The translations under genes and the position numbers were made by a program. The notes beneath the pieces were generated by a model. That model worked only from the letters and a program-made list of their open reading frames with translations. It did no database searches and was not told the origin of the DNA. Of a stretch of 64,000 bases of DNA, positions 17,809-18,208 are shown one piece after another. The stretch comes from a virus (taxonomy: Duplodnaviria; Caudoviricetes), in the IMG/VR virus record IMGVR_UViG_2974630879_000001, positions 1 to 64,000 of that record; one strand, written 5' to 3'. Position 1 is the first letter of the stretch. Each line of letters opens with the position of its first letter.

Positions 17809-17858
17809 GCCAATCTGATGAGTCCGTTAGGACGAAACACACTCTGTGTGTAATTGGC
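17809..17858 (+). ncRNA. Hammerhead ribozyme (type I; predicted cleavage after GUA, between 17852 and 17853)
   Basis: GCCAAT-CTGATGA-GTCC(GTTA)GGAC-GAAA-CACAC(TCT)GTGTG-TA-ATTGGC: full consensus core with all three stems paired. Confidence 0.92.
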
Positions 17859-17859
17859 T

Positions 17860-18200
17860 GTTTGAGATGAAAGGGTGCCACCCTGGAATCAATATTGTTC
17901 AGCCCGTCGCCAATGCGATCATTGGCTAATTCAGCACTGAGGATGTGCTGCACCTGTTCAGTACCCTCGCAAGGTACGTTGAACCAGGGGACGCAAGTAA
18001 CCCTTAGAGGCGTGTATAACCGGGAGTCTAAATCCGGTGCTGTGTCCTAATTCACAGTGAGTTGATACCAAATAGAGAAGATTAGGCTCGCTTGGTTAAG
18101 CACTCGTAGACTTGGCAACTACATACACGTCTCGCCTTCATATATTTGAGGTAGCAACCCACTTGTGCTCTTGTACAAGATAGTCTAAGGTTGCTGCCAC
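17860..18200 (+). ncRNA. Unassigned ~340-nt multidomain structured RNA
   Basis: At least 8 helices, including 11-bp 18007-17/18123-33 and 10-bp 18150-59/18189-98; no ORF. Confidence 0.6.
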
Positions 18201-18208
18201 AACGCTTT

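Follow-up and report, generated by a model that had tools for sequence, protein, structure and literature searches.

Introduction

Phage T4 carries within its tRNA cluster two stable non-tRNA RNAs, RNAs C and D (species 1 and 2), which are about 120–140 nt long, have tRNA-like CCA ends, are co-transcribed with the tRNAs and are released by host tRNA processing. To our knowledge, their function is still unknown after decades. The locus described here likewise places a non-tRNA RNA, of about 355 nt, in a phage tRNA cluster, and its context, with no promoter-like site and a single terminator, fits that precedent. The RNA is larger than those of T4, lacks a CCA end and begins at a predicted hammerhead cut.

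Phage hammerheads have been proposed to cut long transcripts into units (Perreault et al. 2011, PMC3088659). The predicted ribozyme at this locus shares with the type I hammerheads of phages and prophages (Rfam clan CL00010, RF00163, RF03152) the core, the three stems, the open stem I and the NUH cleavage triplet, as well as the intergenic placement inside a long phage transcript. It differs from them in its sub-threshold Rfam scores, in a conserved 11-bp hairpin lying upstream and in a stem I strand that also takes part in the first helix of a large RNA downstream. What it heads is an island of RNAs only, instead of a protein gene.

GOLLD and ROOL are large phage RNAs that occur near tRNA islands and are held by kissing loops (bioRxiv 10.1101/2024.12.08.627333). 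Both have multi-way junctions and covarying kissing loops, and one GOLLD adjoins a tRNA-Met (same source). The present RNA is also phage-encoded, lies beside a tRNA island and contains a covarying kissing loop, which is a resemblance in kind and not a sign of membership: it measures 355 nt against about 580–800 nt, has a far narrower distribution and has a predicted 5' end set by a ribozyme. In gut phages, the tRNA-associated, HDV-like theta ribozymes cleave at the 3' ends of tRNAs (Kienbeck et al. 2024, PMC10879173). The present locus resembles them in having, among phage tRNA genes, a small self-cleaving ribozyme whose cut would set one end of an adjacent RNA with no need of a protein enzyme. 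Here, in contrast, the ribozyme is a hammerhead about 355 nt upstream of the tRNA, and its predicted cut defines the 5' end of a non-tRNA RNA.

Results

The phage and its RNA island

The window, that is, the whole stretch of DNA analysed, covers positions 1–64,000 of a virus record that is 76,335 bp long and has direct terminal repeats. Judged by gene content and relatives, the phage is an N4-like podophage (Schitoviridae). Its relatives by shared genes are Xanthomonas virus PB119, the Stenotrophomonas phages Pokken, Paxi and Piffle, and a Logan contig. The genes common to the window and the PB119/Pokken-type relatives include those for an RNA polymerase, rIIB and ThyX, as well as a DUF8224 gene followed by a gene for a 136-aa protein; the lineage is related to Pokkenvirus and Xanthomonas phage PB119. 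The RNA island follows the 136-aa gene (Table 1). No sigma-70-like promoter was found in 17000–20500.

Table 1. Features of the island and of the structured RNA (positions in the window; MFE, minimum free energy structure)
Feature	Position	Strand	Description
Island	17592–20295		2.7 kb, ORF-poor, 3' of the 136-aa gene, seven tRNAs
Multibranch RNA, ~170 nt	17603–17775		perfect 11-bp closing stem, then G-CCA; between the 136-aa gene and the hammerhead hairpin
Hairpin H0	17781–17806	+	11 bp, G+C-rich, directly upstream of the hammerhead; in the MFE of 17778–17860
Type I hammerhead	17809–17858	+	read from the sequence; predicted cut between 17852 and 17853
Hammerhead stem I	17809–14/17853–58		6 bp, open
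Hammerhead core CUGAUGA	17815–21
Hammerhead stem II	17822–25/17830–33		4 bp, capped; G17822-C17833 is G10.1-C11.1
Hammerhead GAAA	17834–37		GAA at 17834–36
Hammerhead stem III	17838–42/17846–50		plus A15.1-U16.1 (A17837-U17851); 6 bp in all, capped
Cleavage triplet GUA (NUH)	17850–52		predicted cut after A17852
Structured RNA	17853–18208	+	~355 nt, predicted hammerhead cut to tRNA-Met 5' end
Domain 1	17853–17904	+	irregular hairpin (17856–17904); closing helix GGCUG/CAGCC, 17856–60/17900–04
Domain 2	17905–17993	+	three-way junction closed by CGUC/GACG; hairpins 17909–26, 17932–50 and 17953–89
Bridging helix	17994–99/18143–48	+	CAAGUA/UAUUUG; RNAalifold; weak, A/U-rich, encloses the central domain
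Central five-way junction	18007–18133	+	11-bp closing stem 18007–17/18123–33; arms a–d
Central arms	a 18019–38; b 18039–58; c 18059–18105; d 18106–22
Kissing loop	18046–52 with 18080–86	+	arm b loop CCUAAUU with arm c loop GAUUAGG; from covariation
3' domain	18150–18198	+	10-bp outer stem 18150–59/18189–98; inner 7-bp hairpin 18162–68/18173–79
Tail	18199–18208	+	10-nt single-stranded; 5' leader of the tRNA; predicted RNase P site 18208/18209
tRNA-Met(CAU)	18209–18284	+	ARAGORN; Rfam tRNA 70.3 bits, non-standard 1-72 pair marked
Second multibranch RNA, ~160 nt	19527–19686		9–11-bp terminal stem, then G-CCA
Intrinsic terminator	20260–89		sole strong one; end of the island

The tRNA-Met gene forms the 3' bound of the 355-nt RNA, and it is identical in the window and in two metagenomic contigs, L009 and L010. 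It has features of its own. The acceptor stem (CGCGGG...CCCGCAACCA) contains a C1xA72 mismatch and resembles that of bacterial initiator tRNA-fMet, and the bottom of the anticodon stem holds two of the usual three G-C pairs only. A phage-encoded initiator-like tRNA is unusual; it might be tied to host toxins that cut initiator tRNA.

Two further multibranch RNAs of the island end in G-CCA. The second of these folds with a z of −2.85, and none of 200 shuffles was as stable. The one preceding H0 is present in the window and in L010, is precisely missing in L009, and has a recognisably similar counterpart inserted at 660–790 of the contig L016, whose leader otherwise differs. Given this absence and this insertion, the segment behaves like a mobile RNA module. 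Two non-tRNA spacers of the island, 18981–19190 and 19268–19436, have 73% and 85% identity to PB119 (L011:11837–12049 and 10807–10974, respectively) and are conserved despite a tRNA order that differs from that of PB119. They are further structured-RNA candidates.

The hammerhead and its upstream hairpin

The core of the hammerhead is complete: C3-U4-G5-A6-N7-G8-A9, G12-A13-A14, A15.1-U16.1 and G10.1-C11.1 are all present. For a nascent RNA spanning 17778–17860, the MFE structure consists of H0 plus exactly the three-stem hammerhead (z −5.5). In the MFE structure of a transcript that runs on to 17910, stem I gives way to the closing helix of domain 1, formed by the same nucleotides. In these folding models, the domain 1 helix would replace stem I as a post-cleavage lock, and H0 would come to lie near the 3' end of the upstream mRNA fragment.

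The Rfam scores remained sub-threshold, with 25.0 bits for Hammerhead_3 (gathering threshold 48.5 bits) and 16.6 bits for RAGATH-1-hammerhead (56.3 bits), the latter in the type I register at 17810–17857. Natural hammerheads normally need a stabilising tertiary contact. A covarying partner of loop II, as in a stem I–loop II contact, was looked for and none was found. Variation of the hammerhead in L009, L010 and the contig X1, assembled from public run data, was confined to loop II (U to G) and loop III (U to A). H0 was invariant in L009 and L010, and X1 carried a compensatory C-G to U-A change in it (17788C>T with 17799G>A). In L009, H0 and the hammerhead begin right after the stop codon of the 136-aa gene; this leaves no room for a promoter there and argues that the hammerhead is transcribed by read-through.

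Five other CTGATGA...GAAA matches in the window were discarded, as they lacked stem II and their number was within chance expectation. Among the matches listed in a metagenome scan, 88 hammerheads shared the core and stem II; the open-stem-I layout occurred in 25 of these 88, and 7 of the 88 had a same-strand tRNA at most 600 nt downstream, which gives the placement seen here a precedent in other phage tRNA arrays.

Fold of the RNA

The MFE of 17853–18208 on the plus strand was −119.1 kcal/mol (z −2.68), and none of 100 shuffles folded as stably. The minus strand of the same interval gave a z of −1.37. The MFE structure contained every helix listed in the original prediction at its position: GCCAATG/CATTGGC (17909–26), CAGCAC/GTGCTG (17932–50), the long hairpin at 17953–88, the 11-bp stem with its arms and the 10-bp stem. 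Its description as a multidomain structured RNA was borne out by the z value and by the compensatory changes in relatives reported below.

In the consensus fold, the 3' strand of hammerhead stem I serves again as one side of the helix that closes domain 1. The domain is invariant in three sequences (window, L009 and L010), and the single changes seen in run contigs (17888 A>G and 17882 C>U) keep the pairs. Domain 2 shows compensatory changes at 17912/17923 (A-U to G-C) and in its long hairpin (G-C to A-U), and its changes to G-U wobble pairs fit the plus strand only. The bridging helix carries a single one-sided change (A-U to G-U) and no independent covariation support. The central 11-bp stem encloses the arms ACCGG/CCGGT, CTGTG/CACAG and GTAG/CTAC plus a fourth, long arm, and is followed directly by GCCU and not by GCCA or another NCCA. 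The 3' domain, with its 9-nt asymmetric loop AUAGUCUAA, is almost invariant; the run contig X16 has 18167G>A, which turns a G-U pair into A-U. RNase P cuts at tRNA 5' ends, and the tail leads up to such an end.

The termini had been placed at the hammerhead cut site (17852/17853) and at the start of the tRNA-Met (18209), and both were recovered. These are sequence-level boundaries that a ribozyme and RNase P could make. The further claim that neither end needs a phage protein stands as far as sequence features go, with a complete hammerhead on the 5' side and a tRNA on the 3' side, while the cleavage itself, like release as one 355-nt species, is a prediction. The statement that no ORF is present also held: the only ORF of at least 50 aa in the interval (17895–18050, TTG start) was considered as a hidden gene and rejected, since it is broken by 1–2-nt indels in relatives.

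Relatives, covariation and strand

In a 5.8-billion-cluster collection, the 136-aa protein had only two close relatives (97% and 93% identity). The contigs that encode these two, L009 and L010, both carry H0, the hammerhead, the 355-nt RNA and the tRNA-Met. The window was aligned with these two contigs, and RNAalifold gave a consensus of 114 pairs. The aligned positions were 98.5% paired, with 9 compensatory changes as compared with 0–2 when the partners were slid by 1–3 columns; as the three full-length sequences fall into two allele classes, these changes amount to one deep comparison plus fragments. Further variants came from contigs of four public runs, one of them a metatranscriptome. The run data are assembled contigs, so that even pieces from the RNA library do not show transcription, RNA ends, strand or expression. 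Almost all of their variants keep the pairs: 17912/17923 and 18016/18124 change from A-U to G-C (the latter as 18016A>G with 18124T>C in the 11-bp stem of contig X3), 18045/18052 changes from U-U to G-C, and several more are changes to G-U. The many invariant G-U pairs, together with the changes to G-U, would be C-A mismatches on the other strand and therefore place the RNA on the plus strand. Judged by this pattern of substitution, the interval is a genuine, selected, multidomain structured RNA of the plus strand.

A kissing loop in a fast-diverging central domain

Within the central domain, 49 pairs were 97% paired, with 10 compensatory changes against 0–2 in the slid controls. Three of these ten fall in a loop–loop helix between arms b and c, which reads UCCAACU/AGUUGGA in L009 and L010, comprises 6–7 pairs and is 100% paired. 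An unbiased scan of all column pairs ranked this kissing loop joint top with the 11-bp stem, and it is the sole strong covarying helix outside the nested fold. The contact may form within one molecule or between molecules, as the covariation fits either. Other tertiary pairings considered (loop a–loop d, loop d–3' domain, and loop a–arm c stem) had no consistent covariation.

The central domain diverges by 35% from L009 and L010, as compared with about 13% at four-fold degenerate sites of the upstream DUF8224 gene (Fisher p ~7e-7). Divergence from the same contigs is 1.4–2.7% in H0 and the hammerhead, 6–10% in the 5' domain, 0–4% in the 3' domain and 0% in the tRNA-Met. Measured against the four-fold sites, the hammerhead, H0 and the 3' domain are under purifying selection on sequence, and the alignment marks the central domain as hypervariable in sequence and conserved in structure. 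One central allele is common to L009 and L010, and another is found in the window. The run contig X1 is a mosaic with an L010-like 5' domain and a window-like central domain. The two alleles and this mosaic indicate that the central module is exchanged by recombination with its fold preserved. In X16, which comes from the metatranscriptome run, position 18198 is joined to 18283 through 13 unrelated bases that replace the tRNA-Met module; the 3' hairpin of the RNA is followed by these 13 nt and then by the next CCA-ended tRNA-like element (18292–18377). As a sequence arrangement, a relative with no tRNA-Met behind the RNA points to modular shuffling.

Distribution

Rfam 15 at gathering thresholds on the window returned no family in 17853–18208. 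At E<=10, searches of 17300–19800 and 17775–17905 gave none in the interval, apart from which the hammerhead matches were sub-threshold; the original prediction had recognised no family either. ARAGORN and Rfam found no tRNA, tRNA-like RNA, tmRNA or RNase P RNA in the interval, the Rfam models of group I and II introns had no match there at E<=10, and the GOLLD and ROOL covariance models had none in 17853–18208 at gathering thresholds or at E<=10. Blastn of 17592–18208 against 50,697 phage records found no match. Synteny through a gene for a 681-aa protein in IMG/VR led to relatives of only about 40% identity, without tRNAs. In collections that withhold records very near the window, exact-pattern scans of IMG/VR for the hammerhead, the 3' domain and domain 1 gave nothing or one chance match (L021), and a scan of the GTDB genomes of the same type yielded no further carrier. 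A scan of JGI metagenomes with the hammerhead core returned unrelated hammerheads, and none among the matches listed had the 355-nt RNA.

We built covariance models of the central domain (R1), the 3' domain (R2) and the 5' domain (R3) and searched about 0.74 Mb of loci. The models matched only the window, L009 and L010. They had no match in PB119, L012, Pokken, Paxi, Piffle or L016, and no paralogue inside the island, including between the central domain and the G-CCA-ended RNAs. Within the searches made, the 355-nt RNA thus occurs in one narrow phage lineage only. Conservation of the structure in related phages, which had been proposed as a test, holds for the close relatives L009 and L010, whereas the more distant cultured relatives have no such RNA at all. 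Its absence from the nearest cultured relatives implies that it is dispensable for this phage type.

The same position is occupied in PB119, L012, Pokken, Paxi, Piffle and L016 by a conserved leader of another kind, which has no hammerhead. In PB119, Pokken, Paxi and Piffle, this leader is structured, non-coding and 240–420 nt long, and it lies between the homologous 136-aa gene and the first tRNA. It resembles the 355-nt RNA in genomic position, in being structured and non-coding, and in sharing the short CUAAGGUUGCU, but it has neither a hammerhead nor a match to R1–R3. In both, CUAAGGUUGCU, which belongs to the 3' domain of the 355-nt RNA, forms the 3' strand of a stem, and the layout of the last hairpin is similar. 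The match of the 3' domain to the PB119/Pokken leader is marginal (7.8 bits, E ~0.1; local alignment z 2.1–2.7).

The other leader appears to be uncatalogued. It was located at L011:10412–10600, in L012, in L013–L015 and at L016:590–900 (PB119, Pokken, Paxi, Piffle and two Logan contigs). Its 10-bp stem, GAGCAACCUU/AAGGUUGCUC, carries G-C instead of A-U in L016. GCUCCCU/AGGGAGC is an alternative pairing, and inserts of about 130–195 nt are specific to particular lineages.

Discussion

We favour, at a probability of about one half, a lineage-specific, multidomain structured non-coding RNA whose 5' end would be made by the hammerhead and whose 3' end would be made by RNase P, and which would be built to persist and be recognised as a shape. 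The island would be read through from the upstream genes. The absence of a promoter-like site, the terminator at the end of the island and the layout of L009 support co-transcription with the upstream gene and the tRNAs. Once 17858 is transcribed, the hammerhead would fold and cut after A17852. The mRNA would keep a hairpin-plus-ribozyme 3' end with a 2',3'-cyclic phosphate, and the downstream RNA would gain a 5'-OH. The new 5' end would then be buried in the helix that closes domain 1, where the stem I strand is used a second time. Host RNase P, acting at the 5' end of the initiator-like tRNA-Met, would then make the 3' end of the RNA, just past a very stable, invariant hairpin. The product would be an RNA of about 355 nt, protected at both ends, with a central five-way junction locked by the kissing loop. 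A 5'-OH end held in a helix, an invariant 3' hairpin and a kissing-loop-locked core suggest an RNA that is built to persist and is recognised by its shape. A mere spacer would have no need of ten compensatory pairs in its central domain, three of them in a tertiary kissing loop. Rather than being a throw-away spacer, the 355-nt RNA in our view most likely persists as a folded particle and would work in trans by binding a protein or another RNA, in the manner of other RNAs from phage tRNA islands. The sequences establish the fold, its conservation, the strand, the boundaries as sequence features and the lack of a known family, and from there we infer cleavage activity, RNase P processing, accumulation and a function in trans. 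Several points count against this reading: the compensatory changes come from two allele classes, the run data are contigs, the hammerhead scores below the Rfam thresholds and no loop II partner was found for it, the nearest cultured relatives lack the RNA, the 11-bp stem followed by GCC could itself be cut by RNase P, and one relative has 13 nt and a tRNA-like element behind the 3' domain in place of tRNA-Met.

The interval may instead be no single RNA but a series of modules that are excised one by one. Host RNase P (or RNase E) would then also cut at 18006/18007, 5' of the 11-bp stem, which would yield a 5' RNA of about 154 nt, a knotted central RNA of about 130 nt and a 3' hairpin of about 70 nt. 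Long stems followed by RCC(A) are established non-tRNA substrates of RNase P (minihelices, the 4.5S RNA precursor), and the central 11-bp stem followed by GCC resembles such a minihelix. The two multibranch RNAs of the island have 9–11-bp terminal stems followed by G-CCA, and the central domain is of the same design, with GCCU after its stem. The modules also evolve and recombine independently, as seen in the divergence of the centre (35%, against 0–10% in the flanks), in the mosaic X1 and in the relative joined at 18198, and the bridging helix that would hold the centre in place is weak and unsupported by covariation. Against this stand the GCCU in place of GCCA and the lack of paralogy between the central domain and the G-CCA-ended RNAs. 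We regard excision in pieces as possible but rather doubtful. A further possibility is that the interval acts only in cis. As a leader, it would keep the tRNA array apart from the upstream mRNA, assist folding of the hammerhead and afterwards lock the product; the precursor's 5' end may also be shielded by it, and it would be degraded as a by-product once RNase P has cut. A 5'-OH RNA escapes 5'-monophosphate-dependent RNase E attack. All phages of the group have a structured leader of 240–620 nt between the 136-aa gene and the first tRNA, and the shared position of leaders with differing sequences suggests a role that depends on position and not on sequence. The competition between the domain 1 helix and hammerhead stem I, as well as the dispensability of the 355-nt RNA in relatives, fit the same explanation. 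A five-way junction locked by a kissing loop and kept through 35% divergence, however, exceeds what a spacer needs, as do the near-invariant unpaired stretches of the 3' domain. A released piece would also be guarded against 3' exonucleases by its stable 3' hairpin. A purely cis-acting leader is unlikely in our view.

Chance folding, a DNA-level element (promoter, origin or cruciform) or a hidden small ORF is very improbable. N4-like phages do use DNA hairpins as early promoters, and the minus strand folds moderately, with the z of −1.37 given above. None of the 100 shuffles folds as well, though; the compensatory changes indicate a plus-strand RNA, as do the G-U pairs, which on the opposite strand would turn into C-A mismatches; a loop–loop pairing is meaningless in duplex DNA; and the 1–2-nt indels in relatives break every reading frame.

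A bolder reading, which we hold to be speculative and quite unlikely, sees in the 355-nt RNA the founder of a new class of phage RNAs that are released by a ribozyme, knotted by a kissing loop and active in trans during infection. The loop–loop pairing might then be intermolecular, with the RNA self-assembling in the manner of ROOL and GOLLD. Alternatively, a host factor aimed at tRNAs, or at the adjacent initiator tRNA, could be lured away or inhibited by the fast-evolving central module, in which case the hypervariability of the centre would reflect an arms race.

On its sequence features, the locus is a candidate for a new RNA family of a known general kind. We propose that the locus joins two subjects, the purpose of bacterial and phage hammerheads and the role of large folded RNAs beside phage tRNA genes, with a ribozyme setting the 5' end, the tRNA machinery setting the 3' end and a covarying kissing loop holding the core. 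Should the RNA prove stable and functional, the few large non-coding RNAs known from phages would be joined by a new family, and hammerheads would gain a defined role in making such RNAs. The leader position in N4-like phages of Xanthomonadaceae-type hosts appears as a hot spot of RNA-module swapping, and the 35% divergent central alleles together with the mosaic contig predict more distant carriers.

A different association of hammerheads with tRNAs was seen in two unrelated metagenomic phage-like contigs, L056 (minus strand, core 1244–1267) and L030 (minus strand, core 3743–3766), in which a type I hammerhead lies within a tRNA array. The 3' strand of its stem I is the 5' acceptor strand of a tRNA-His. 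Cleavage at the predicted site, GUC|G, would leave a single extra G, which is the G-1 that tRNA-His needs.
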